From Candidatus Thorarchaeota archaeon (lineage in GTDB: Archaea > Asgardarchaeota > Thorarchaeia > Thorarchaeales > Thorarchaeaceae): a DNA stretch of 21,340 bases. The position numbers and the translations under genes are program-made. The stretch lies in assembly GCA_019057475.1 (NCBI GenBank), contig DXJO01000037.1:1-21340 (forward strand). The letters run 5' to 3'. This document shows positions 1 through 19,825 of the stretch, piece after piece; within the stretch, counting starts at the first letter, position 1; each line of letters starts with the position of its first letter. Below the pieces are notes generated by a model. The model saw nothing but the letters and a program-made list of their open reading frames with translations. It did not search any database and had not been told where the DNA came from.

Positions 1-2
1 TC

Positions 3-686
3 ATTTGCAAAGAGATAGGTTGTCCTGAGTTGATTGAACCTATTCCAAGACCCAAAGAAGTTTCAGCTATTAGACGACGTGACCTCTTGACTCCTAATGA
101 AATTGCTGCATTGTTGAGAGCCTGCAAAGACTTGTATGAACGTGCAATGATAGAATTACTAGTTGAGTCAGGCTGTAGGATTGGAGAGGTGCTTAGTCTT
201 AATGTCGAAGACATAACCACAGATGATAACTTCCTCTACGTGGATGTCATTGGTAAGACAGGCACTCGTCAAATTCCATTACTCAAAGATAATCTACCAA
301 GTTTTCAGTATCACTTGGTAATCCGTCTAAGTGGTCCAGTGTTCAACAGTAGTCGATATCCTGATAGACCAATCTCATATCGTGTTGTGCTTGATAAAAT
401 CGTGGACATCTTTCAGAGGGCTGGAGTCAAGAAACGTGCTAGAACAATCCACATCTTCAGGCATACCAAGGCAACGTATCTCATTGAACTAGGAGTTCCT
501 GAGAGTATCATCAAGAAGTTCATGGGATGGTCTGAAACTTCAGATACAATAACGAAGTACACCCATCTCACCAACAAGTCAGTCAAGGACTTCTTCAGCA
601 GGCTGTATGGTATTGATGAAGAACCTATTGAACCACTCTTCCCAGATGAAGAACGTAAGAGGATCAAGGAGATGTTCAAAGACTAG
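3..686 (+). CDS. Tyrosine recombinase/integrase (Xer/phage-integrase family), 5'-truncated by the window edge
   Basis: Catalytic motifs in order: GCRIGE (R), IGKTG (K), HIFRH (HxxR), MGW (H/W), KYTH (Y). The frame is open from position 3 (ICKEIGCPEL...), so the true start lies upstream. Confidence 0.95.
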   Translation: MCKEIGCPELIEPIPRPKEVSAIRRRDLLTPNEIAALLRACKDLYERAMIELLVESGCRIGEVLSLNVEDITTDDNFLYVDVIGKTGTRQIPLLKDNLPSFQYHLVIRLSGPVFNSSRYPDRPISYRVVLDKIVDIFQRAGVKKRARTIHIFRHTKATYLIELGVPESIIKKFMGWSETSDTITKYTHLTNKSVKDFFSRLYGIDEEPIEPLFPDEERKRIKEMFKD

Positions 687-1040: not shown

Positions 1041-2117
1041 TCACGTGGGAGTTATCTTGACGAATCCAAAGCCAACGAACTCTGTTATCAAATCCATTGC
1101 CTTAGCGTCAAGTTTGTCTTTTTCAAAGGGGATGTAACCTATGTCACTGAAATCACTTGCAAGAGTCACCCTATCTTCTTTTAGTATCACAATCTTGTCA
1201 TACAGAATGGAGGCTGCACCAAGTTCATAAACCGCATTGTCACTTGGCCTCCAAATCTCCTTACCTTTTGCATCCAAGCACATCTCATCTGCTGTAAAGA
1301 TGATTATCGCTGATGTACACTCATGCATAAGGTCTGCAACTTTCTTCGAGATCGGACGACCCCCAAGTGGTTCGTCTATGGCAACCTTGTAAGGGACCCT
1401 GAACTTGTCAAGTATAGTCTTTAGTTGCTTCACAGGAATACGATTCTTACCATGAGCAACGAAAATCTGATTCTTCTTGGACGGTTCTGCTGTAGCCTTA
1501 GGAATCTGTTCTGTAACAGCCTCCTCAATCGATTCAGGTGGGACCTGAGTTTTTACTTTTGAAGAAACAGTTGGCCCTTCAAATGTAACATGCAAGGCAC
1601 CCTGACTCTCGAACAAAATACCAGCAAACTTGCCATTTGCTATTAGTTGATTGATGCAATCATCGAGAAACTTCTTTGGAATTTTGAAGTCGGTTTCCAA
1701 TGTATTCCTGAAGTAGGTGTCCTCTGCAGAAGGAAGACGCCCATCCCTATAGTACTCATATATCTTTTCGAACGCTTTGACGCTGAGCACAGCCTTCTGT
1801 CTGTCAAGTACTTCCTTCTCAGGCTTCACAGGTTTTGTAAGTGATTGACCTAACGGTGCCAAGGCTATTGTTGTTGCATTCCACGTTCCTTTGGTAATAG
1901 CGTACTTGTATGCCGAACTGGTAATATCTCTAAACTTTTGACTTCCTGCCTTCAACTTCATGTAGTCTGCAATGAATACAGGCTTCCATGGCTTCCCATT
2001 GTTGCCTTTCTGTATGGCTTGTGCTACCTTGAGTGCATCCTCAAGAGTATGATGTGGTATAGGTCTTTGGGGACTTCGCTTTTCCACTTTGGCAGTTCCT
2101 TTTGCTGAACCAGACAT
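1041..2117 (-). CDS. TIR-domain protein (Cap12/Pycsar-type TIR) with an uncharacterised, possibly wHTH-like, N-terminal domain
   Basis: C-terminal IFVAHG, AIIIFTADE, RPSDNAVYELG (putative catalytic Glu) and SDFSDIGYIPF match this TIR family. ATG 2117 (MSGSAK) is the likelier start than 2231. Confidence 0.85.
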   Translation of the reverse strand: MSGSAKGTAKVEKRSPQRPIPHHTLEDALKVAQAIQKGNNGKPWKPVFIADYMKLKAGSQKFRDITSSAYKYAITKGTWNATTIALAPLGQSLTKPVKPEKEVLDRQKAVLSVKAFEKIYEYYRDGRLPSAEDTYFRNTLETDFKIPKKFLDDCINQLIANGKFAGILFESQGALHVTFEGPTVSSKVKTQVPPESIEEAVTEQIPKATAEPSKKNQIFVAHGKNRIPVKQLKTILDKFRVPYKVAIDEPLGGRPISKKVADLMHECTSAIIIFTADEMCLDAKGKEIWRPSDNAVYELGAASILYDKIVILKEDRVTLASDFSDIGYIPFEKDKLDAKAMDLITEFVGFGFVKITPT

Positions 2118-2248
2118 TGTACATACCCAAAAGCAACTCCTAATGATTCGCAAATTAATGTTTCGACCAAACTCGCAGAGATTCATACCATCTAGAGTAT
2201 TGAAATCAAAGAGATGTTTGGGTAGGATCAATCCCTACCTTCTATATT

Positions 2249-3156: not shown

Positions 3157-3969
3157 TTGTATGATGTGATGATGGAATCCAAAGACTTCAAGGTATTCTT
3201 GGACTTCATGGACAGCAAAGATGCTACCTACTACATGAATTTCTGGGGTCACATGGACATTTCCATCCAGTGTGTTGCTAATGATGGACGTTATGTTGGA
3301 GAATTAATCACAAGTTATAGATTCAAATACACTTGCATTGAACCTCTCAGAATTTGCTTTGATTCAAAGACTAGAGAGGCACTCAGGAGGTCAAGTATTG
3401 GAGTCGAAAAGGTCACCATTGAAGGTTCAAATATCGTCCTTGGTGAAGACCAATACACCGTGATAAGTCGGTATATGAATGAACGATTGCCACCTATTAT
3501 TGAGGATACGACAGAGAGAATTCAAGAGATGACTCTTTTACTTAGTGAGTTTCGAAGAGCGGTCAACATTCTTCATAAAGAAAAGATACAACTTGCTAGA
3601 CTTCGTTTTCTTGTGAAGAGTCGATTATTGGAAGTTTCTACAACCACTGAACTATCGACTTCGTGGAGTTTCAGACTTCCTACATCTGATGTCTATTTTT
3701 CAGGTGAAGAACCTCAGGTGTATTTCGGACAGGAGGAGTATCCAGATCCTCCTCAGGTCATAGACTCGTACTATGACGTAAATGACCTTCTATGTGTGAT
3801 AGATGCAATGGAATATCACTATGGAAGAGAAATCGTGCTCTCACTGTCACTACTCCAAGATGACAGATTGCTCTTTGAATCAGATAATAAGAAAGGTACT
3901 CTCCATCATAGGTATAAGGAAGCTACTCTCACGCATAGGTGTATACTCAACAAAGCAGTCATAGAATAG
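3157..3969 (+). CDS. Divergent PCNA-like sliding clamp
   Basis: 270 aa. The pattern follows PCNA: FKVFLDFM, ISIQCVAND (cf. ISLQAMD), FKYTCIEPLRICFD (cf. FDEYECDEPxxIGV), LSEFRRAV, DSYYDVNDLL (cf. SSYSLEYL). By-eye match only. Confidence 0.6.
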   Translation: MYDVMMESKDFKVFLDFMDSKDATYYMNFWGHMDISIQCVANDGRYVGELITSYRFKYTCIEPLRICFDSKTREALRRSSIGVEKVTIEGSNIVLGEDQYTVISRYMNERLPPIIEDTTERIQEMTLLLSEFRRAVNILHKEKIQLARLRFLVKSRLLEVSTTTELSTSWSFRLPTSDVYFSGEEPQVYFGQEEYPDPPQVIDSYYDVNDLLCVIDAMEYHYGREIVLSLSLLQDDRLLFESDNKKGTLHHRYKEATLTHRCILNKAVIE

Positions 3970-4018
3970 AAATGTTACAAAGAATGCAACATTTGCTCTG
4001 CAAGGACTCACTGATGTA

Positions 4019-4207
4019 GAACACGCAATGCGTCCATCTGGGTGATGAGGTCCACTAGAGGAGCACGTCACAGGCAGAGGTGCACTAGGAGGTTGACGTC
4101 ACAGGCTCGATATCGGGAGTCTCTATAGGTGAAATATGGGCCACCCAATCAATACCTATTCACAAGATTTTACGTAGTAAAATCGTCCTCTGTGACTCCA
4201 CCGAATT
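4019..4207. repeat. Copy 1 of a ~190-bp non-coding module
   Basis: Shares GAACACGCAATGCGTCCAT (19/19), four GT(S)CAC(T)AG(G)-type units, ATCGGGAGT..CTATAG, CCTATTCAC and an 8-bp hairpin with 5171-5357. Confidence 0.85.
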
Positions 4208-4363
4208 CTATTCCTCGTCATTGAGTGGAATATCAACCACAAACGAATCAACATCAATTTCCCCATTCGTGATGTAAAGTTTTCCAGCAACGTCTTCATG
4301 ATTTGACACGAAGTGAGTATTTTCTGGACCCACCTTTACATTAGTAAACTTGACCTTAACCAT
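4208..4363 (-). CDS. 51-aa hypothetical microprotein
   Basis: ATG at 4363 (MVKVKFTNV...) is preceded by a perfect GGAGGTGA RBS. Confidence 0.7.
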   Translation of the reverse strand: MVKVKFTNVKVGPENTHFVSNHEDVAGKLYITNGEIDVDSFVVDIPLNDEE

Positions 4364-4394
4364 CTCTTCACCTCCTGTTACGTGTATCATAACA

Positions 4395-5100
4395 CAAGAT
4401 TTCTTCGGAATTACGTGTGGTGATATCTAAATCCGAGGAGTTCCTGTTTACTAACAGTCAGTCAAATGTGCTGATTCCACAAAATCTCCGATGACTGTTT
4501 TAGCAGAAGGAGTTGCTCCTCTCAATGGGCTAAGTTGTACTCCTTCTGCACCTTTTTCCCATCACCTTATAGAACTCCATACTTCGCCGTATTTCCGAAG
4601 AACACCTCGGTAACAGAGAGGAGCAACAAAGTTTAGCCCCTGTCCATGAATTGCGTTGATAATTCAGGAACCATAGGTTAACTGGATAACATATTTGGCA
4701 CAATTCCTAAGTTTCTCGTAACCTCAGGACGTCAGAAGTACACCTAATACTACTGACAAACTGATCCATATGAGATAAAGTACATCGTCTGATGTACTTG
4801 TTCAGTCACCTGAGTAATTCTTTACAAAGACACTGCTGTACTACTCATATGATATAACAAAGACACTGCACTACTAGGAGAAATCGGATGAATTCTTTAG
4901 AGGGAATATTTCCCTTGAAAATAATTCCCAGAAATTTATTAAACCTGAGGTCTCGCCATACTTAACTTTTGTGTATGACACTCCGCGAGACACCTAGACA
5001 AATTGGGTTGTTTCGAGGTCATACTTAAAGAGTGGGCTTTAACTTCGAAAAGACCTCCCACAAGAACACTTCCGAAATCCGAGTTGTCTTTGGTCGACGC
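4395..5100 (+). ncRNA. Candidate structured ncRNA domain(s) with pseudoknots
   Basis: Helices 4401-4415/4588-4602 (14/15), 4437-4443/4572-4578, 4453-4460/4492-4499, 4503-4513/4539-4549, 4778-4786/4791-4799, 4950-4956/4985-4991 and 4996-5009/5076-5089. G-U pairs favour +. No credible ORF. Confidence 0.55.
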
Positions 5101-5154
5101 AATGCGATACCCACGAGTTAATTGCCAACACTTCTTCAAATCCGCCTTTCCTCA

Positions 5155-5570
5155 ATACAAAGATGCTACTGAACACGCAATGCGTCCATATGTCGTCACT
5201 AGGAGGCTGAGGTGCACAGGAGCACGTCACAGGCACGTCCACTAGGAGAGATCAGTTCAAATCGGGAGTTCTATAGAGGTAAACTGCGCCATCCCAAATC
5301 ACTCCTATTCACTAAGTAATTTCCCTTGAAATTACGCCTCCTAGTAACCATCGATTTGTCGAAGACAAATCATCTGGTTACCTGGTGGACATCTTTGTGT
5401 CCTGTGTGTTAAGTGAATAGGGCTGCCGCAGTATGTATTACGAATTATTGGCACTAGCATCTTTGTGTCCACTCCTCTAAAGTCGAAGTATTAGCCCAAT
5501 AGATTCATCGGATTTACTGGGAGAACTTGTCTGTCACAACTGTAGAGAAACCCCCGATTTATTCCAGTGA
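5155..5570 (+). ncRNA. Candidate structured ncRNA (contains module copy 2)
   Basis: Nested helices 5259-5276/5540-5560, 5283-5288/5427-5432, 5304-5313/5412-5421, 5316-5323/5328-5335, 5344-5350/5375-5381, 5353-5360/5364-5371 and 5387-5392/5397-5402. G-U pairs favour +. Confidence 0.55.
5171..5357. repeat. Copy 2 of the ~190-bp non-coding module
   Basis: Collinear conserved blocks with 4019-4207. Confidence 0.85.
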
Positions 5571-5638
5571 TGTCCATGCTTTAGTACAGTCCTTCAATAA
5601 TTGTAGAGCCTTGTACTCCCAGCCAATTTAACTCAAGA

Positions 5639-5697
5639 TATGTCTCAAATAGTTGTAGAGTCATTCAACTATGTCTCAACTCGTGTGAGTCATTCAA
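5639..5697. repeat. Imperfect ~31-bp tandem duplication
   Basis: TATGTCTCAA...GAGTCATTCAA occurs twice (starts 5639 and 5670). Confidence 0.7.
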
Positions 5698-5715
5698 TCA
5701 CTCTTCAATTATCGT

Positions 5716-6219
5716 TCAAACTAGTAGCGGCTCACTCTCAAACTGGATATTATCTACTGAAATATGTAGGCAGTCTCCTCTCCTAATCCAAGGTTTCTCT
5801 TCATATGCAAGTTCAAATGCTTTGAATAGAAGTAGGGTCTTTAAATGACTATCAAGTGACGGTTCATGTACTTCATTGTGGCAGCTATTACAAAGAAGTG
5901 ATAATGTCCACGGTTGACCGTCACCATGTGAATATTGATTCTCTATGTGGTGAAGGCTTAGTTTCTGATAATTGAAGACTTCACTCTTGCCACAAAGAAC
6001 ACAATTCCTTCCATAGAGATTTCTGATGTGTAGTCTTTGAAATGTTGAAACATCACCTGCTCTATTTCCATGTTTATAATCTAATATTGAAAGAGGACGT
6101 TCTGACCACATCTTTGCCATTCTACGTGAATGTGATACTCTTTGTTCATATGTGAGTTTCATTTGCATCACTCTCTCAGTATCAATCTTTTCATTGCTCT
6201 TTTGAACCGTTTCAAACAC
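5716..6219 (-). CDS. HNH endonuclease-like protein (paralog 1)
   Basis: CVLCG...LHHI...LLCNSCHNEVH: Zn-binding HNH signature. The start may be a downstream ATG. Confidence 0.85.
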   Translation of the reverse strand: MFETVQKSNEKIDTERVMQMKLTYEQRVSHSRRMAKMWSERPLSILDYKHGNRAGDVSTFQRLHIRNLYGRNCVLCGKSEVFNYQKLSLHHIENQYSHGDGQPWTLSLLCNSCHNEVHEPSLDSHLKTLLLFKAFELAYEEKPWIRRGDCLHISVDNIQFESEPLLV

Positions 6220-6334
6220 TCCTTACTACAAAAGTAGAAGGTCTTGTCACCTACTTCATAATCTATGCTGCTTCGAATATTCACAGTCTTGCAACAGAAA
6301 TAGCAATCAACGATTACTACGTGTTGTCTTTGCA

Positions 6335-6802
6335 TTATATCACCTTCTTATCGACACTTGCTGTACTTGGTGCTATAGGCTGGACCTCTGAACTAATTGA
6401 TCGATTTGAAGGCATTGATTCTTCTGTAACCCCCATCAATCCCGTTAGATTCCCCTTAGAATAGGCTGTTACCTTGAACATCACGTCCTTTATAATCTCG
6501 TCAATGAATTCACTACAATCTTCATTTAGTCTGTATATTACCATAACAGCAATGAGGAAATCTCTTAGTCCTTTCTTTGTTAGGTCTTTGTAAGGAGTAC
6601 AAATCTTCCATCGCATCTGATATCTGTTGAATACAGGAGAACAAAATTTTGCTGATGGAGTGTAATAGCAATACACTCTAGGTCTCGGACCATGTCTGTA
6701 AAACAACATTGAACAGAACAGAAATTGTGCATCAAAGAAATCCTCTTCTATGAAGAATATTGATGATATGTATTTGATCCTATCTAATAACAAAGAATAC
6801 AC
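6335..6802 (-). CDS. Hypothetical protein
   Basis: 155-aa ORF co-oriented upstream of HNH 1. No motif recognised and the start is uncertain. Confidence 0.55.
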   Translation of the reverse strand: MYSLLLDRIKYISSIFFIEEDFFDAQFLFCSMLFYRHGPRPRVYCYYTPSAKFCSPVFNRYQMRWKICTPYKDLTKKGLRDFLIAVMVIYRLNEDCSEFIDEIIKDVMFKVTAYSKGNLTGLMGVTEESMPSNRSISSEVQPIAPSTASVDKKVI

Positions 6803-6809
6803 TTCCTAG

Positions 6810-7439
6810 CATTTGTCTTTGTGCTTACATTCAGTTTGACCTGCTCTTAGGCAGGTATGTTGAACTATGTGGGATTTACTGCCCTTCTAACCCGTTACAT
6901 TCTAGATTTGAAGGCCTTCACATCCCTGAAGACGTCCGCATTTTGTGAAGTGTAACAAAGTATATTGCAACTATCAGGACCCGATTCCCACTCCTTCTTC
7001 CGTAACTCGGAGAGTTTCTTACTATGTTTCTGAAGTTCCTCTTCAGACAAACTATCCCAATAACTAGTGCTTATCGGGTCGTTGGGTTGCAAATGCAACA
7101 ACTTTCTGTAAGAAAGTATGGCTGGCACAGAATTGTTTCCGTGAATACCATCATTCCAAGGTATCAAGGTCAAACTCAACGTAGCTGCCTACATCATTGC
7201 TAATCTCTCTTGTCCCAGTACGTTGTGAGAAGTCTATAGATTCTGGGAGGACTCGTATCCCAATTCTTCTTATAGAGGATCATCGCCAGCCAATGTATCC
7301 CCCAGTTGGCATTCATTTTTGCGACATCTGCTAACGCGTTACCATTCCGTTAGGACATACGGTATCACCCAGTTCGGTACTCAATTGCTAACGCATTAGC
7401 ACAAGTCACTCTACATCTGCTAAAGTATCGCTGTTAGCA
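6810..7439 (+). ncRNA. Candidate ~630-nt structured ncRNA
   Basis: Helices 6819-6825/7398-7404, 6824-6830/6867-6873, 6839-6844/6851-6856, 6894-6901/6949-6956, 6965-6972/7085-7092, 6978-6985/7073-7080, 7029-7035/7041-7047, 7101-7107/7111-7117 and 7119-7126/7285-7292. G-U pairs favour +. Confidence 0.55.
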
Positions 7440-9055
7440 GGCCCTGTGGAATAAGTCGAATGACGGAAAAGAACCAGAATTCCATCTCTTCGATGTTGCA
7501 TTTCATACATCTCACAAGAAAACCGATGCTGATATCGATCACATCGAGTGTAAACTAACGGGCTTTTTCCACAGAGCCGATCTCTTCGGACAAGTTATTA
7601 GCAAAGACGTACAAATCACGGTTGAGGGGAAGGCAAACCATTGATTGCGGTTCCGTATCTAGTGAAGCAAGCAAGGAGGTCGAAAGTCCGAATTTATTCG
7701 GTCATTCTTCTATGCTCTATTATCGGGACAGTTCACCTGACCATATCTCTGGAAACCTACGTCAGAGAACCAGTGGCAATCTGGGAGGAACTGAATAATC
7801 CATGGGCCTATGCTCTCTACGACATTGCCTTTTATGATTCATCTCGCGGGTGGGCAATTGGAATGGCAGATGCTGGGCCAGGGGAACGTGACTGTGGAGT
7901 TGTGCTGCAGACCAAAGATGGAGGAGATACGTGGACCCTGTCCTATTCGAACCCGGATGTTCAACCTAATTTCATCGAGATTGTTGATTCCAAGACGGTA
8001 TGGATTGCTACAAGAAGAGGACTCCTGAACACTCTTAACGGTGGTTTAACATGGAATATCGACCTGCCAAAATACAAAGCAGCTTATGAATACAATCCCA
8101 CTGTGGCATTCAAAAACTCCACGCATGGTTGGACAAGTATAAACTGGGAACTCCTCTATACTGTAGATGGAGGGCACATCTGGAATCCTGTCGAATCATG
8201 GCCCTTTGATACAGGGGTTTTCCAGATCCGTTTTGTTGGAGAACAACTGATGTGGGCAGGGAGTCTTGATGGAATATTCCACAGCCAAGATGGAGGACAG
8301 ACTTGGACTCAGCAATTCAACAGATCAACCCGTGGTCTTGCAATAGTGAGCGAAACTGAGGGATGGGCTTGTTACCTTGACAGCCATCTTTCACACATGA
8401 TAGATGGACAAAACTGGATTCAAAAGCATACACCCAGCAGAGCGTCCTATTTCCAATGGGCAGCTTCGCGCTATATGGATTTGGAATTCATCAACCCCAA
8501 ACAGGGTTGGATAGTGGGGTCTACCGTGGGTGTCGCTTACACTCCAGATGGGGGATTGAACTGGTATGTACAAAAGCTACCCCCACGCTGGAGTAGTCTG
8601 CGGGCTGTAGACTTCATCAATGAAACACATGGCTGGGCTGTTGGATGGAATGGGAACATATACCGTACAAGAACAGGCAATCAATACGGCAGAAGGTTGG
8701 TAGGAGACGGGTACGTGATTCGAGGGTTTGGGGGTGACTGGGTTATTCCAAGTAGCACTGTGGTATGTGTCATTCTGGTTGCTTTTGGTGGTATTGTATC
8801 ACTTCAATTGATTGATAGATATCGGGAGAGGAGAAAATCTGAACCAATTCAAGCATCCCTGAGAATTCAATGGTAGGATTGTGTGACAAAAGGTTGGCAT
8901 ACTGAATATCAGTAGCCCCTAATAGGCGAAAGATAAGATCAAAGAGTGCGATGTGGAAGTTACCAACATCGGTTTTCTTGTGAGATGTATGAAATGCAAC
9001 ATCGAAGAGATGGATCCTGGTTCTTTCTCTGTCATTTGACTTATTCCACAGGGCC
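7440..9055. mobile_element. Non-autonomous IS5-family (IS903-like) insertion cassette carrying one passenger gene
   Basis: Perfect 18-bp terminal IR GGCCCTGTGGAATAAGTC (7440-7457 / 9038-9055), extending imperfectly to ~110 bp with a perfect 48-bp block (7481-7528 / 8967-9014). Direct flanks CTGTTAGCA (9 bp) at 7431-7439 and 9056-9064. No transposase. Confidence 0.92.
7641..8876 (+). CDS. YCF48-related / BNR(Asp-box)-repeat beta-propeller membrane protein
   Basis: Six TxDGGxxW-type repeats (TKDGGDTW, TLNGGLTW, TVDGGHIW, SQDGGQTW, MIDGQNW, TPDGGLNW), F.N...GW motifs, and N- and C-terminal hydrophobic segments. Confidence 0.9.
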   Translation: MIAVPYLVKQARRSKVRIYSVILLCSIIGTVHLTISLETYVREPVAIWEELNNPWAYALYDIAFYDSSRGWAIGMADAGPGERDCGVVLQTKDGGDTWTLSYSNPDVQPNFIEIVDSKTVWIATRRGLLNTLNGGLTWNIDLPKYKAAYEYNPTVAFKNSTHGWTSINWELLYTVDGGHIWNPVESWPFDTGVFQIRFVGEQLMWAGSLDGIFHSQDGGQTWTQQFNRSTRGLAIVSETEGWACYLDSHLSHMIDGQNWIQKHTPSRASYFQWAASRYMDLEFINPKQGWIVGSTVGVAYTPDGGLNWYVQKLPPRWSSLRAVDFINETHGWAVGWNGNIYRTRTGNQYGRRLVGDGYVIRGFGGDWVIPSSTVVCVILVAFGGIVSLQLIDRYRERRKSEPIQASLRIQW

Positions 9056-9074
9056 CTGTTAGCAGACAAAGATA

Positions 9075-9308
9075 TCATTCCAAAATTGGATAATAGTCAA
9101 TATCCTCTGTATCTTTGTAGATTGAGCATTTCTTAGAACCTAGGATGACATCATATGGCACCCAAGTTACTTTCAGAGGCTCAATTCCCTCCAAAATCAC
9201 TTTACCATAGGTAAAACCCATGAACCGTACCCTAACACTTACACTTCTACTAAGCAACTTACGAATCTTGCGCTTCTGCTCAGTGGTAAGGTCAAGTTCA
9301 ATCTTCAT
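9075..9308 (-). CDS. Small hypothetical protein coupled to HNH 2
   Basis: ATG 9308 with GGTGGTGA upstream, 11 nt after the HNH 2 stop. Confidence 0.65.
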   Translation of the reverse strand: MKIELDLTTEQKRKIRKLLSRSVSVRVRFMGFTYGKVILEGIEPLKVTWVPYDVILGSKKCSIYKDTEDIDYYPILE

Positions 9309-9319
9309 CGTCACCACCC

Positions 9320-9781
9320 TTAGAAATACATCTCAAAGATAATGTCCTGTTCAAGAGCCTTCACCAGCGTAATGTCTGGTGTTCCTCTCTTAACCACGCT
9401 TCCTTCCTCATAACCATACTCGAATGCTTTGAGAAGACACATCATATCGAGGAATCCATATTGCTCCTCTCGATGGATCATTGAGTGACATTGTGGACAG
9501 ACTAATGTTACCCACCAAGGATTTGCATCGCCGTGTAAATTATCTCTTACAATATGATGAAAGTGCATATTGTGTTCGCCTATGAATAATTCACTTATAC
9601 CACAAAGAACACAATTCCTTTCGAACAAATTGCGTATATGTCTTCCATTTGTTCCTAAAAGACGACATCCGTATTCTCCAGTTATCTCATAAAAATGACC
9701 AACAATTAATCCTTCAGCTGCTTTCTTGATCAATGCTCGTGATACTGCTAGATTATGGTCATATTGTTTGAATGTGCTCAT
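9320..9781 (-). CDS. HNH endonuclease-like protein (paralog 2)
   Basis: CVLCG...FHHI...LVCPQCHSMIH, with GGAGA upstream. Clearly homologous to 5716-6219. Confidence 0.85.
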   Translation of the reverse strand: MSTFKQYDHNLAVSRALIKKAAEGLIVGHFYEITGEYGCRLLGTNGRHIRNLFERNCVLCGISELFIGEHNMHFHHIVRDNLHGDANPWWVTLVCPQCHSMIHREEQYGFLDMMCLLKAFEYGYEEGSVVKRGTPDITLVKALEQDIIFEMYF

Positions 9782-12012: not shown

Positions 12013-12083
12013 GTGACCGAACACCCTTCACGACACCTCGTGTTCTGCCTGTGCAAGATAGGGTGTTAAGTTCGTGTTAGATG

Positions 12084-13177
12084 ACTCACTCATGTTATCC
12101 TCTTCTGATGCTGTTAGATTGAGATGTTAGGTGGTTCTGAATTCTCTTCTTCACAAAAAGACCTAACAAGTTATCACAAGTTCACAGAAAAGGTCTGATA
12201 TATCAGGCGGCTTTAGGCATTCTTTGATAGAAGCGTAGCTGTCTCGCTAATTAATACGTTCGTATTATTTAGACAATGTTCTTCACAAAATTCCATATGC
12301 CGTACAATCTTCCGAGCGGTGTCATAATCCTTTCTGCACCACGCTTCGACTGCTGGAATATTGCATTTTAGTCCCTCTATCTTATCATAGAATTATATAC
12401 ACTCTTGACAAAAACATATACACTCTTGACAGTGTCAACATCTGAATCCTAACAACCTAACAGAAACATATACACTCTTGACAGTGTCAACATCTGAATC
12501 TTCACAAGTTGACAGAAAAACTTCACAAGTTTTCACAGACTCACAGAAAATCCTCACAAGTTCACAGAAAAGGTCTGATATATCAGGCGGCTTTAGGCAT
12601 TCTTTGATAGAAGCATATACACTCTTGACAAAAACATATACACTCTTGATGGAAAAGGTCTGATATCTCAAAGGCATAATAAAGATGGGCCATTTGGTCG
12701 TCTATCCACTATATAGGGTGTCCTGCAAGTACGTTTGCAAGTGTGTTTGCAAGTTGGCCTATATAGCGCTCCTGCAACCCTCTTTGTAAGGGTGTTTGTA
12801 AGGGTGTTTGTAAGGTGGGTCTTTCGTACCCTTCAATCACCTGAGCATCGCATGAGAATCGAGGTCTAACGGGATGTGAGGGGGTGAGGATGGGGGTACG
12901 AAAGCCATACTAGACCTCATCTACCCTCATTCTATGAGGGGGTAGCCATAGCCCAGTGTGTTAGTATCTTACATGACTAATAACCTAACACATAAGCATC
13001 AATGCATCCTAAGAAAGACAGACGTGTGTAAGATGCCAGCTTGCAAGCATTTTCATAGTTGTCTGCAATGTAATTACCACTCATCACGCAAGAACGAAAG
13101 GTGTAAACAACCTAACATTTTACAGATGTTAGTCCTCCTGTTCTAGTGTAGATAGGACTTCCCACACTGCCTTCTCA
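12084..13177. repeat. Copy A of a repeat-rich non-coding element
   Basis: Collinear with 14913-15595: CACTCATGTTA, CTGTTAGATTGAG, GTTAGGTGGTTCTGA, two CTATATAG boxes with 12-bp repeats, hairpin 12821-12831/12894-12904, and a 47-bp terminus at 13131-13177. Confidence 0.9.
12174..12650. repeat. Iteron-like cluster
   Basis: Perfect 61-bp direct repeat (12174-12234, 12554-12614), five ATATACACTCTTGA (12395, 12416, 12468, 12615, 12636) and two TTGACAGTGTCAA inverted repeats. Confidence 0.9.
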
Positions 13178-14912: not shown

Positions 14913-15595
14913 CACTCATGTTAGGTTTTCCTGAGTCAAACAGTTCACTCATGTTAGACTCTTCACTCATGTTAGGTTTTCCTGAGTCAAATAATTCACT
15001 CGTGTTAGACTCTCCTGACACTGTTAGATTGAGTTTTATTGAGAAGTTAGGTGGTTCTGACTCTATTTCTTTACAGAAGAGATCTGAAATCTTCTAGATG
15101 TAGTAAGATAAGATATTATGTCGTCTGGTCCCTATATAGCGCTGTGGAAAGTACTAAAGAAAGTACTAAAGAAAGTACTTTTGAAAGCTGGCCTATATAG
15201 CGCTACGGCAAGTACTTTTGCAAGTTGACCTTTCGTACCCTTCGATCACCTGAGCATCGCATGAGAATCGAGCTCTAACGGGATGTGAGGGGGGATGGTG
15301 GGGGTACGAAAGCTATACTAGACCTCATCTGCCCTCATTCTATAAGAACACACCCATAGCAGCGTATCAATACTTTACATTATTTACAACTTTACACAAT
15401 AGGCACCAATGAGTCTTAAAAGAAACAGACGTGTGTGAAACGCCAGCTTGCAAATGGCTTGCAAGCACTTTCGTAGTCTATCTGCAGCGCATTCGCCACT
15501 CGTCACGCGAGCGCGAAAAGGTGTAAGCAATCCGATGTTTTACATGTCAGTCCTCCTGTTCTAGTGTGGATAGGACTTCCCACACTGCCTTCTCA
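14913..15595. repeat. Copy B of the repeat-rich non-coding element
   Basis: 51-bp tandem duplication (14913-15014), CTATATAG at 15132 and 15193, hairpin 15230-15240/15302-15312, and terminus 15549-15595 (46/47 identical to copy A). Confidence 0.9.
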
Positions 15596-17990: not shown

Positions 17991-19825
17991 TGGCAACGGG
18001 CAATATTTCCTCAAGATGGAAAGTTGCTGATTCTTGGGAGTTTCAGAACGAAATCAATTAGCTAGCAGGCGAACTTAAGCGCGCTCCAAGTCGGGAGGAC
18101 ATTTTGGAACACTACATAGACGAAATCGTTGGAGAGTATTCCGACGCGCACGAGGCTGACCTGACAAAAGCAATAACCAATATTCCGGCCTCGCAACCAC
18201 CAACAATGACCTCTGAGGACACGGATATTCCACGAGAGGTCTTGAAGGCGATTAATCACCAAATCAACTATTTGAAAGAAGAATACACGTTCTGGTCCAG
18301 AGGAAGAAACTCAGCACTTTGGATTTATGACGAGGAAACCTGAGTCTATGTCGAAAACGGAGAAGCCGTTGTGGATAAGTATCTGGCCAAGAGGCTGGCG
18401 GATGATGCAAACTACCGCTCGGTGATCGGCAACGAGGTGATAAATTATCTGAAACGTGCATCCTTCGACGGCGAAGAACTTGGTGGTCCGCCTCATATCT
18501 TGGTTGTCAGGAACGGAAGAATCAATCTTGAGGATGGTTCTTTCGTTGAAGGATTCGACCCTGAGGAATTGCAAATTGTCAGGGTGGATGTGGAGTTTGA
18601 TGAAGAAGTAACCTGTTCGAAGATAGAGAAATTCCTATCTGAGGTCCTAGAATCCGAGGACAAAATCAAAGCCATGGTTGAATTGATAGGCTACTGTCTG
18701 TTCAAAGGATGGCCTTATGATATTATTGTCATCATGGTCGGAGGCGGAGCAAATGGAAAGACCGTCTGGATTGAGGCCATAACCGAGTTTCTCGGAAAAG
18801 AGAATATTGAAGCCATGACCATGCAGACACTTGCCAAAGACAAGTTCGCGCTGGCAAACCTCCACGGAAAACTAGCGAATCTGGCAGGTGAGATTCCCCA
18901 CCAACCGATAGCCTACACCTCACGGCTAAAAGACTTGACAGGCGGTGGACGGGTCTTTGCTCAGAAGAAATACCAGACAGGCTTCCATTTTGAGAATTGG
19001 GCGAAACTGTTTTTCTCGTCAAACAACACGCCTGCAATCTATGACGATTCCCGCGGGATGTGGAGAAGGATGTTTGTTCTCAATTTTCCCAACACCTTCG
19101 GAATAGATGACCGGCCTGCGATCCCTCGTGACAGACTGGTTCAGTCATTGACCACCGAGGACGAATTTAGCGGGCTTCTCAATCTGGCGATTGCAGGATG
19201 GCTCAGACTCAGAGAATCCGGCAAACTCACGGGCACAAAGACTCCCGAGGAAGAGAGGGTCGCCTACCTCAGAGTTTCCAATCCGTTGCAGTACTTAGCA
19301 GAATTTTTCCTCGAATTTGACAGAGGAGTTCCGCCGTTGAATAAGCCGGCTCTCTATGAGGTGTACCTGAGATGGTGCGCCCATGAGGGACAACCACCGA
19401 AAGGCGAGCGGAGATTCTTCAGAGCAATTAGGGCGGTGGCGACTTACATAACCGAGAAACACCCAACTGTGGGGGGTCAGAAGGTTCCTAGAATCTTCGA
19501 GAGCGTCCGAATCAAGACCGAGGATAACCAGCTGATTGTGCTAAAGAAATGGAACTCTATAACCCCTAGGAATCCGGAGCAAAAGAACGGTTCCGAGGGA
19601 GGAGGCTTCTTGTACTGTTGTGGAAGAATTCACCTCCTTCCAAAGCTGGTTGTACGGTGTGAAGCTCCAGGGGCGCCCCCCTGTCGACTACCACCTATTG
19701 AGGTTAGGGGACTCCTTGGACTGTATGATGCGAACCCCGTAAGTTCCAGAGTAGTGGCAGGGAACCACGATTCATGTGTAGCGGGCCGTGGCCTAGAATC
19801 CCATTGCCAAGGGTATGAGAATTAG
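17990..19825 (+). pseudogene. D5/P4-type SF3 helicase (phage/plasmid primase C-terminal domain) with two in-frame stops
   Basis: Walker A GGGANGKT, LHGKLANLAGE, LKDLTGG, KLFFSSNNTP, GMWRRM and a wHTH tail. ATG 17990 (RBS GGAGGTG), ORF 18104 and ORF 18371 share one frame broken by TAG 18059-18061 and TGA 18341-18343. The last ~80 aa look like run-on. Confidence 0.85.

Follow-up and report, generated by a model that had tools for sequence, protein, structure and literature searches.

Genes of the element and their distribution

The window, i.e. the whole 21,340-nucleotide stretch of Thorarchaeota DNA analysed here, is best explained as the central, variable portion of an integrative element that is rare and belongs to Thorarchaeota-like archaea. 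The element's backbone consists of a tyrosine integrase gene and one for a PCNA-fold protein. The integrase (30..686, + strand) has its 5' part on contig C45 and is about 291 aa long in relatives; its best match is XerA-like, and an integron integrase identity was rejected (TIGR02249, 45 bits against a cut-off of 265). The element-encoded sliding clamp-like protein (3157..3969, +) converges on region 1 (see below), and its predicted model (pLDDT 55) resembles PCNA (Foldseek E 1e-7, TM about 0.6); seven homologues (58-75%) were found. One complete relative, L019, spans ~9.5 kb between 146-bp direct repeats that include the integrase 5' end, and these repeats, together with the integrase, bear out the proposed location on an archaeal mobile element. 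For the window's genome the left junction alone was found. Synteny of the element's parts is seen in independent loci. No Rep, capsid or reverse transcriptase was recognised in the complete 9.5-kb relative, no HUH, Rep_trans or Rep-Arvir protein on the element, and no Rep family match among the scanned element ORFs, several of which belong to no family.

When 85-400 related genomes were screened at the DNA and protein level and with profiles and covariance models, G000 alone yielded the element, and it was not found in the 399 other searched genomes of the phylum; the single weak covariance-model match in related genomes lay inside a coding gene. A pattern search derived from the HNH alignment gave no match in three collections, the one derived from the PCNA alignment recovered only the previously found L018, and 29 pattern-scan matches in genome and viral collections were all chance as judged by nhmmer and tblastn. 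With loci that number only about 8 lineages and are related to one another, the p-values given below overstate significance. In the libraries and literature searched, we found no published description of the element family, of its HNH clade devoid of NUMOD3 or of the cloverleaf module described below.

Two paralogous predicted zinc-binding HNH nucleases are encoded on the - strand, with the motifs listed in the original prediction. HNH1 (5716..6168, in an ORF open from 6219) probably uses the ATG at 6168 as its start codon, which overlaps the stop codon of the gene upstream and gives about 150 aa, while HNH2 (9320..9781) is 45% identical to it over 86 aa. Pfam HNH scores both just under its cut-off (E 6e-4 and 8e-4). 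Family members measure 144-167 aa, and their alignment shows a zinc-binding HNH core with catalytic histidines: the HH and CH motifs and a set of four cysteines are invariant, except that P0019 has Asp for the last His. The structure model of HNH1 is poor (pLDDT 49), with no fold match under E 0.001. Coupled to HNH1 is a small TRASH/FCS-type zinc-finger gene (6168..6335, -; weak matches, homologues in L005 and L028). A 155-aa gene with no function assigned (6335..6802, -) comes next and is found upstream of HNH also in L018 and L019 (32-35%). HNH2 is coupled to an 80-aa gene (9075..9317, -), present also in L017 and L022.

Between the two operons lies a non-autonomous, IS-derived insertion (7440..9055). 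Its recognition as an insertion was correct: it ends in inverted repeats of 107 nt (84%), is flanked by a target duplication of 9 bp (7431-7439/9056-9064), carries a YCF48/BNR cargo gene (7641-8876, +), is absent from L017, and its ends match those of a DDE-transposase IS on contig C42. One contig assembled from four DNA runs, at low stringency and with only fragments obtained, joins 7294 to 9056, which is compatible with an insertion-free allele.

Hairpin-rich modules persist while HNH genes come and go

Region 1 (3970-5715, 1746 nt) lies downstream of HNH1. It had been described as ~1.7 kb of nearly ORF-free, helix-rich DNA; the folding holds, but the region also contains a small ORF and an internal duplication (4019-4163 against 5171-5312, 71%). 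Module B (4014..4199) repeats part of module A's 3' half and includes an 8-bp hairpin (4166-4184) whose triloop reads GTA on the + strand. Next come an ORF of 60 aa (4208..4390, -), which has a ribosome-binding site, belongs to no family and is 82% identical in L028, and a middle hairpin-rich module with no ORF (4400..5150), 78% identical in L028 over aligned columns. Module A (5150..5715) comprises leader repeats, an 11-bp palindrome (5175), a cloverleaf and a conserved tail with short direct repeats.

The cloverleaf (5283..5432) consists of three hairpins inside a long closing stem, one of them (5353-5371) with a GAA triloop on the + strand, and matches no Rfam family. Its architecture is common to L028, L002, L018 and L019, the topology being kept in five lineages, with HNH identity of 48-68% in the relatives and with base changes that compensate each other in the middle stem and the last hairpin. 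RNAalifold on MAFFT alignments missed it because the hairpins misalign, and covariation was therefore counted by hand, on few sequences. For L019 the pairwise alignment is not significant and the nhmmer score is circular, so homology there rests on architecture and short motifs. The cloverleaf occurs within 1.4 kb downstream in all four HNH1-type loci with enough flank, the distance from the HNH stop codon varying from 280 to 1331 nt, with one or two other ORFs between in two loci.

In module A, a leader-to-tail helix of 14-15 bp can form on the gene strand if 2-3 G-U pairs are allowed, with z of -3.3 and -3.5 on that strand against -1.5 and +0.4, in only two close copies. Pairings of tail to interior hold in the window and L028 only, and not in L002, L018 or L019. 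The tail is 79-81% identical against 55-72% at four-fold sites of neighbouring genes, a figure inflated by local alignment. L028 lacks the stretch that holds the sole good TATA-like site of archaeal type (about 4929-4945), as judged by eye; a sigma-70 promoter scan, whose model is not relevant to archaea, showed no excess.

Region 2, downstream of the HNH2 operon (6803..7430; 648 nt when rejoined without the insertion), is helix-rich once the insertion is removed, as proposed, but holds a 94-codon ORF (6895-7179), possibly the remnant of a coding sequence. Its conserved part (7150-7430) is about 80% identical in L017, L025 and L026, with two tandem copies in the latter two. Regions 1 and 2 are not homologous to each other, hence there is no duplicated module.

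Comparison of relatives shows that hairpin-rich modules are duplicated, swapped and kept, while HNH genes come and go. L028 and L029 retain module A, the middle module and module B (78-90%) with HNH1 reduced to its last 14 codons, and L026 keeps its two copies of the HNH2-flank module beside a 485-aa gene in place of HNH2; each kind of flank persists in a relative whose adjacent HNH is deleted or replaced. The suggested co-occurrence of nuclease and flank is seen for the cloverleaf in the HNH1-type loci, but the flanks also occur with no intact HNH. These HNH-less relatives may be decayed loci, and L028, at about 82%, is close enough for neutral persistence of the modules, and four-fold sites are unsaturated in closer pairs (72-80%). 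L025, L031 and L032 have largely different sequence at the same position.

Folding, strand and loop signatures

Both regions fold better than dinucleotide shuffles, with z from -2.3 to -4.2 for large segments and down to -7.1 locally (5300-5449), and perfect hairpins of at least 8 bp number 4 against 0.2 expected in the window regions and 19 against 1.1 over all homologous regions, a 17-fold excess. The notion that folding is mainly on the strand opposite the HNH genes has one pointer in its favour, the loop sequences: folding energy is similar on the two strands and G-U against A-C counts (13:11) show no strand bias. Outer flanking pairs favour gene-strand G-U (13:7) whereas inner ones favour the other strand (11:3).

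The loop signatures are of DNA type, not of RNA type. GNRA, UNCG and CUUG tetraloops amount to 2 of 26 on the gene strand and 0 of 23 on the opposite one, against 23 of 40 in rRNA and RNase P of the host (Fisher p 3e-5 for the gene strand and 1e-6 for the opposite one), rRNA being a strict control, since young or mobile RNAs may do without special tetraloops. The G-U share of hairpins is 9.4%/8.5%, compared with 15.2% in true RNA and 9.2% in its antisense. GNA triloops, in turn, make up 7 of 19 on the opposite strand and 0 of 19 on the gene strand, against a background of 24/356 (p 3e-4, or 0.0015 after removing one duplicate), in a test picked after the loops were seen. GNA mini-hairpins have DNA-specific stability and are found at the G4, ssiA and N4 initiation sites (PMC13037366).

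We give about an even chance to the modules being cis-acting folded-DNA elements, probably replication or priming signals, with the HNH genes as passengers. On this view they would work at the DNA level, the + strand, on which integrase and clamp are encoded, folding once it becomes single-stranded or is extruded. Their most probable task would be to signal replication or priming (as origins of the double-strand or single-strand type) on an excised circle that is copied by host polymerase with the element's own clamp. The HNH proteins would be free-standing, protein-guided nucleases or nickases of homing type that lost their NUMOD3 repeats and gained a C-terminal extension; their movement as passengers between co-resident elements would account for the mosaic flanks, and one of them may provide the initiating nick. 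The element yielded neither an initiator protein nor a nick site, and 'origin' therefore rests on analogy.

An RNA role, all readings taken together, is doubtful. Structured non-coding RNAs of the element that steer its replication, copy number or excision independently of the HNH proteins, most likely read from the gene strand, either within a long 3' region or as a transcript of their own, seem unlikely: the cloverleaf architecture that holds with compensatory changes while sequence diverges, the outer flanking pairs, the conserved tail and the leader-to-tail helix would suit them, but RNA-type tetraloops are nearly absent, the G-U share resembles antisense controls, the inner pairs favour the other strand, the tail-to-interior pairings fail in three relatives and the good TATA-like site falls in a stretch missing from L028. 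To the original prediction, in which a large RNA encoded downstream of each HNH gene is bound by the HNH protein and makes it a new kind of RNA-associated nuclease, we assign a slim chance. The recurrent cloverleaf downstream on the same element, the IscB matches detailed below and the family's lack of NUMOD3 repeats to account for targeting speak for it; the unrelated flanks with their variable spacing and intervening ORFs, their survival of HNH loss, the grouping of the HNH proteins with NUMOD3 endonucleases and the DNA-type loops tell against a duplicated nuclease-plus-RNA module, and the HNH-plus-RNA reading is weakly supported. Similarly improbable is its sharper form, with cloverleaf plus tail as a new archaeal structured RNA class binding a minimal RuvC-less HNH, in which the RNA would replace the NUMOD3 repeats as targeting or regulatory part; if true, RNA-associated nucleases beyond the OMEGA systems would include one of only some 150 aa. 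That the regions are by-products of tandem duplication, template switching and gene decay, with little selected function, is also quite unlikely. The internal and tandem duplications, two later insertions, the relic ORF, patchwork sharing among loci, the different sequence in three relatives and the unsaturated four-fold sites fit such an origin, as opposed to the one topology kept in five lineages with HNH identity down to 48%, the long-hairpin excess and the strand-specific loop bias.

If the modules are DNA origins, they would illustrate a mode of replication for a small Asgard element that has its clamp and lacks a known initiator, with an HNH nick as a possible route, and would offer a candidate replicon for archaea that have no genetic tools; if RNA, they would form a new structured class in Asgard archaea. 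At present they are a rare motif, and a nuclease-RNA system is not established.

Relation to known nucleases, RNAs and origins

Among 1.84 billion proteins, the best matches outside the family are NUMOD3-HNH homing-type endonucleases (P0007-P0016; loci L007 and L015 of G050), which share the zinc-binding HNH core and the pattern of residues around it, with 13 invariant columns. NUMOD3 exceeds its cut-off in 7 of 10 HNH neighbours and has no match in HNH1 or HNH2, which carry one short N-terminal helix only. Judged from these comparisons, the two proteins are related to that architecture and stand outside it: they have an extra C-terminal extension and form a separate clade (100/100), in agreement with the predicted distinct compact family. 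Sporadic presence and loss is common to both groups. The 645-nt downstream flank of the L015 relative has no perfect hairpins.

The best curated profile match is IscB (E 3e-8; 33 bits against a cut-off of 175; positions 162-246 of 314), and the best PDB sequence match is likewise the HNH part of IscB (E 1.7e-4). The PLMP domain, split RuvC and bridge or arginine-rich helix are absent from the family, whose 144-167 aa leave no room for them, and there is no IscB elsewhere in the genome. The N-terminal PLMP domain also defines IshB. Searching the genome for HEARO (RF02033) at E<=10 gave no match, and related loci gave none either; group I and II introns have none in Rfam at E<=1 or E<=10, with no core motifs by eye and no interrupted gene seen. 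The Rfam group I model misses divergent introns. Profile and Rfam searches agree with the stated lack of RuvC motifs and intron cores, and the conserved structured non-coding sequence matches no known family. Likeness to IscB/HEARO (OMEGA) lies in the HNH segment score and a structured non-coding neighbour; here that structure is 3' of the HNH gene with no IS200/IS605 context, whereas HEARO RNA sits 5' of its ORF (PMC9755519).

In the window and seven loci, Rfam at relaxed thresholds gave nothing but chance matches. An integron attC array was rejected (XerA-like integrase; R boxes absent at stem ends by eye), interpretation as tRNA-like, ORB or CsrB-like elements was likewise discarded, and no search backed the likeness to TnpB seen by eye in a 170-aa L019 ORF.

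With known hairpin origins and initiation signals the modules share short repeats and a palindrome near hairpins that are conserved and able to form in single-stranded DNA; perfect stems and GNA triloops are shared with the G4 origin, RSF1010 ssiA and N4 promoters (PMC13037366). In the archaeal virus SNJ2 the likely origin is a conserved DNA hairpin downstream of the nuclease gene, Rep-Arvir (PMC13107129), and hairpins beside a nuclease gene, on an element that bears an integrase, are common to both. There is no sequence similarity to any of these, and several larger multi-branch modules occur here.

The Asgard elements or viruses Yucahu and Opia (PMC11529989) also encode a tyrosine integrase and a PCNA-like gene, and small Cys-rich and HNH genes occupy their variable region, as here; by contrast, no capsid or terminase was seen here, and hairpin modules of this kind are not known from them. 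The element likewise has no terminase or packaging genes, unlike the loci of phage HNH nickases by cos sites (PMC3592412), but there too direct repeats and a palindrome lie beside a small zinc-binding HNH, whose neighbour gene often encodes a zinc ribbon.

The integrative element and its cargo

The HNH genes of the window are mobile and reside in an integrase-bounded element together with a clamp-like gene and conserved multi-hairpin modules; this HNH element with hairpin modules is real, and apparently previously undescribed. Contigs carrying relatives of the HNH proteins and of the gene at 3157-3969 (+), whose product is predicted to adopt a PCNA fold (moderate-quality model; Foldseek E 1e-7), form one element family, with a gene set comprising an integrase, small variable genes, the 3157 gene, the non-coding modules, HNH and the gene at 6335-6802 (-). 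The copy in contig L019 is complete, spanning 9.5 kb bounded by 146-bp direct repeats that take in the integrase 5' end, and with the integrase it bears out the mobile element of the original prediction. The element ORFs that were scanned gave no recognisable Rep, capsid, terminase or reverse transcriptase family, and a search of 399 further genomes from the phylum, many of which are incomplete, did not turn up the element.

The window makes up the entire contig C17. A second integrase copy, 94% identical to window 1-676, lies on contig C1 (9430-10105) with different cargo. The end of contig C45 (63161-63518) overlaps both copies, beside a gene judged by eye to be ribosomal protein L13e-like, and contigs L025 and L028 begin at this junction too. 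The window encodes a stand-alone CAP12/Pycsar-type TIR protein at 1041-2231 (-) (top PADLOC match PDC-S35, E 3e-15), in a cargo slot holding DpnII-MboI/DUF2321 or DUF2299 genes in relatives. In L018, positions 2-1678, directly 5' of the element genes, encode a protein of 558+ aa that is rich in glycosylation sequons and has a membrane helix at its C-terminus. It matched no family; if it is a viral surface protein, as it could be, the L018 copy would be a provirus. At the site equivalent to window 7152-7167, an insertion of 780 nt carries a gene for 140 aa (L025, 5454-6236; L017, 896-1499). The D5-like primase-helicase gene at 18371-19825 (+) (DUF5906, D5_N), with paralogues on contigs C51 and C24, probably comes from another element. 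A further non-coding block, rich in repeats and containing tandem units, occurs in two diverged copies of ~80% identity (12076-13177 and 14913-15595).

The predicted insertion at 7440-9055 was confirmed by its 107-nt inverted ends, a flanking 9-bp target duplication and its absence from relative L017. It carries a YCF48/BNR gene, and its ends also bound a 304-aa DDE transposase on contig C42, as well as several miniatures of 140 nt in other parts of the genome. This family of IS ends (window 7440-7578; contigs C19, C21, C29, C32, C40 and C42) makes composite elements as well as miniatures, and on C32 two copies bracket a restriction-modification-like gene of 1304 aa.

Structure and conservation of the flanking modules

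Both regions downstream of the HNH genes are helix-rich as proposed, folding better than dinucleotide shuffles with z between -2.3 and -4.2 (-2.3/-2.4 for the two strands of module A, 5150-5715; -3.4/-4.2 for the middle part, 4400-5150; -2.8/-3.8 for the HNH2 flank rejoined without the insertion), with about equal values on both strands and no energy preference shown for the one opposite the genes. Perfect hairpins of at least 6 bp number 60 in 9.9 kb of homologous regions (shuffles 15.6 +/- 3.0) and those of at least 8 bp number 19 (1.1 +/- 1.0). Region 1 (3970-5715), described as nearly ORF-free, does include a conserved 60-aa ORF, along with an internal duplication; region 2, the HNH2 flank, includes a 94-codon ORF weakly like a small gene 5' of HNH in L018 (E 0.003, pairwise). 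The two regions align no better than shuffles, which speaks against a duplicated HNH and large RNA module. The 7-nt motif CAAAGA plus pyrimidine, a possible protein-binding site, is enriched in both orientations (window 4825, 4858, 5086, 5158, 5391, 5459, 6815 and 9067), with 6 occurrences in region 1 vs 0.8 expected.

In L002, the DNA 3' of a 68%-identical HNH aligns to window 5715-4900 (score 247 vs shuffles 135 +/- 12). A cloverleaf (window 5283-5432), in which a long closing stem surrounds 3-4 near-perfect hairpins, is shared by the window, L028, L002, L018 and L019, the last assigned by architecture only. The tail that follows it is also conserved and contains a palindrome and short direct repeats. 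Its last hairpin shows several both-side changes among the five copies, and one middle-stem pair reads C-G in the window but G-C in L028. The HNH2 flank has a separate conserved module (~80% identity in L017, L025 and L026), with 4 of 39 predicted pairs altered on both sides. Given the hairpin excess, the recurring cloverleaf and the both-side changes, we take the structure as real and probably under selection; aligned module blocks are 79-83% identical vs 55-80% at four-fold sites of neighbouring genes, only a modest excess. It should be noted that L004 is without a 28-nt cloverleaf hairpin present in L002 (near 1110-1140), which may reflect natural variation or the assembly, and that in the complete element a 170-aa ORF (L020, 4378-4890) sits just 5' of the cloverleaf; its by-eye likeness to a TnpB N-terminal half was backed by no search.

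DNA signals, RNA or HNH partners

Host rRNAs and RNase P RNA, run through the same loop and pair procedure, served as RNA control. GNRA/UNCG/CUUG tetraloops make up 23/40 in these RNAs and 2/20 in their antisense, vs 2/26 on the gene strand of the modules and 0/23 on the other (p 3e-5 and 1e-6), while G-U pairs amount to 15.2% (antisense 9.2%) vs 9.4% and 8.5%, and interior mismatches of module hairpins are 13 G-U and 11 A-C. Triloops are in excess (19/60 hairpins, p 0.009), and 7 of the 19 are GNA on the strand opposite the HNH genes, with none on the gene strand, vs 24/356 in the genome; GNA mini-hairpins are much more stable as DNA and are found at single-strand start signals for replication and transcription (PMC13037366). 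The modules thus carry DNA-type loops on the + strand, a lean toward DNA that falls short of proof, since the loci compared are a small, related set and triloops were tested post hoc. Counting against DNA, a leader-to-tail helix (5548-5561 with 5258-5271) includes 2-3 G-U pairs on the gene strand in both the window and L028, the only two copies in which the tail-to-interior pairings hold.

From this analysis we consider it an even call that the modules act in cis as DNA, most likely as replication or priming signals of an excised circle, with the HNHs as passengers guided by protein and possibly nickases (compare PMC3592412). That helix would fit an element RNA independent of HNH, which the loop and pair counts make rather unlikely. 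Hairpins arising as a by-product are unlikely. An HNH-RNA complex would draw on position, the cloverleaf being present in 4/4 HNH1-type loci with enough flank, but it lies 283, 280, 493 and 1331 nt past the HNH stop, with one intervening ORF in L018 and two such ORFs in L019, and modules outlast HNH elsewhere: L028/L029 keep module A, the middle and module B (4014-4199) with HNH1 reduced to its last 14 codons, and L026 has the HNH2-flank module in two tandem copies with an unrelated 485-aa gene replacing HNH2. In L025, L031 and L032, largely different hairpin-rich sequence adjoins the PCNA gene. The tie is therefore partly one of position and not obligate; HNH-less loci could reflect decay, so that a partnership is only weakened, and we regard such a complex as improbable. 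The HNH-ncRNA system originally predicted is not demonstrated, given modules kept without intact HNH, DNA-type loops and HNHs that stand near NUMOD3-HNH proteins.

HNH proteins and known systems

HNH1 (5716-6219, -) and HNH2 (9320-9781, -) share 45% identity across 86 residues, and their alignment contains all the motifs first listed for them. Kept histidines and cysteines predict nuclease activity. The family is scarce, with 5 relatives and 1 fragment in 5.8 billion clusters; top matches outside it, among 1.84 billion proteins, are mostly HNH proteins of 150-300 aa, with NUMOD3 repeats in 7 of the 10 tested. A midpoint-rooted tree, drawn without IscB rows, separates the family and these outside relatives into two clades (support 100/100).

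IscB/HEARO systems are defined by RuvC, PLMP and HEARO RNA (PMC9755519). HNH1 and HNH2 resemble their HNH segment, to which the profile match is confined at a score far under cut-off, but RuvC, as foreseen, and PLMP were not found in the proteins, nor was HEARO RNA found. With the outside relatives they have in common 13 invariant alignment columns, and the simplest reading of the sequences is a homing-type nuclease lineage that would have lost its NUMOD3 repeats. The hairpin modules, for their part, are comparable to the hairpin origin of SNJ2, which lies 3' of its Rep gene (PMC13107129).
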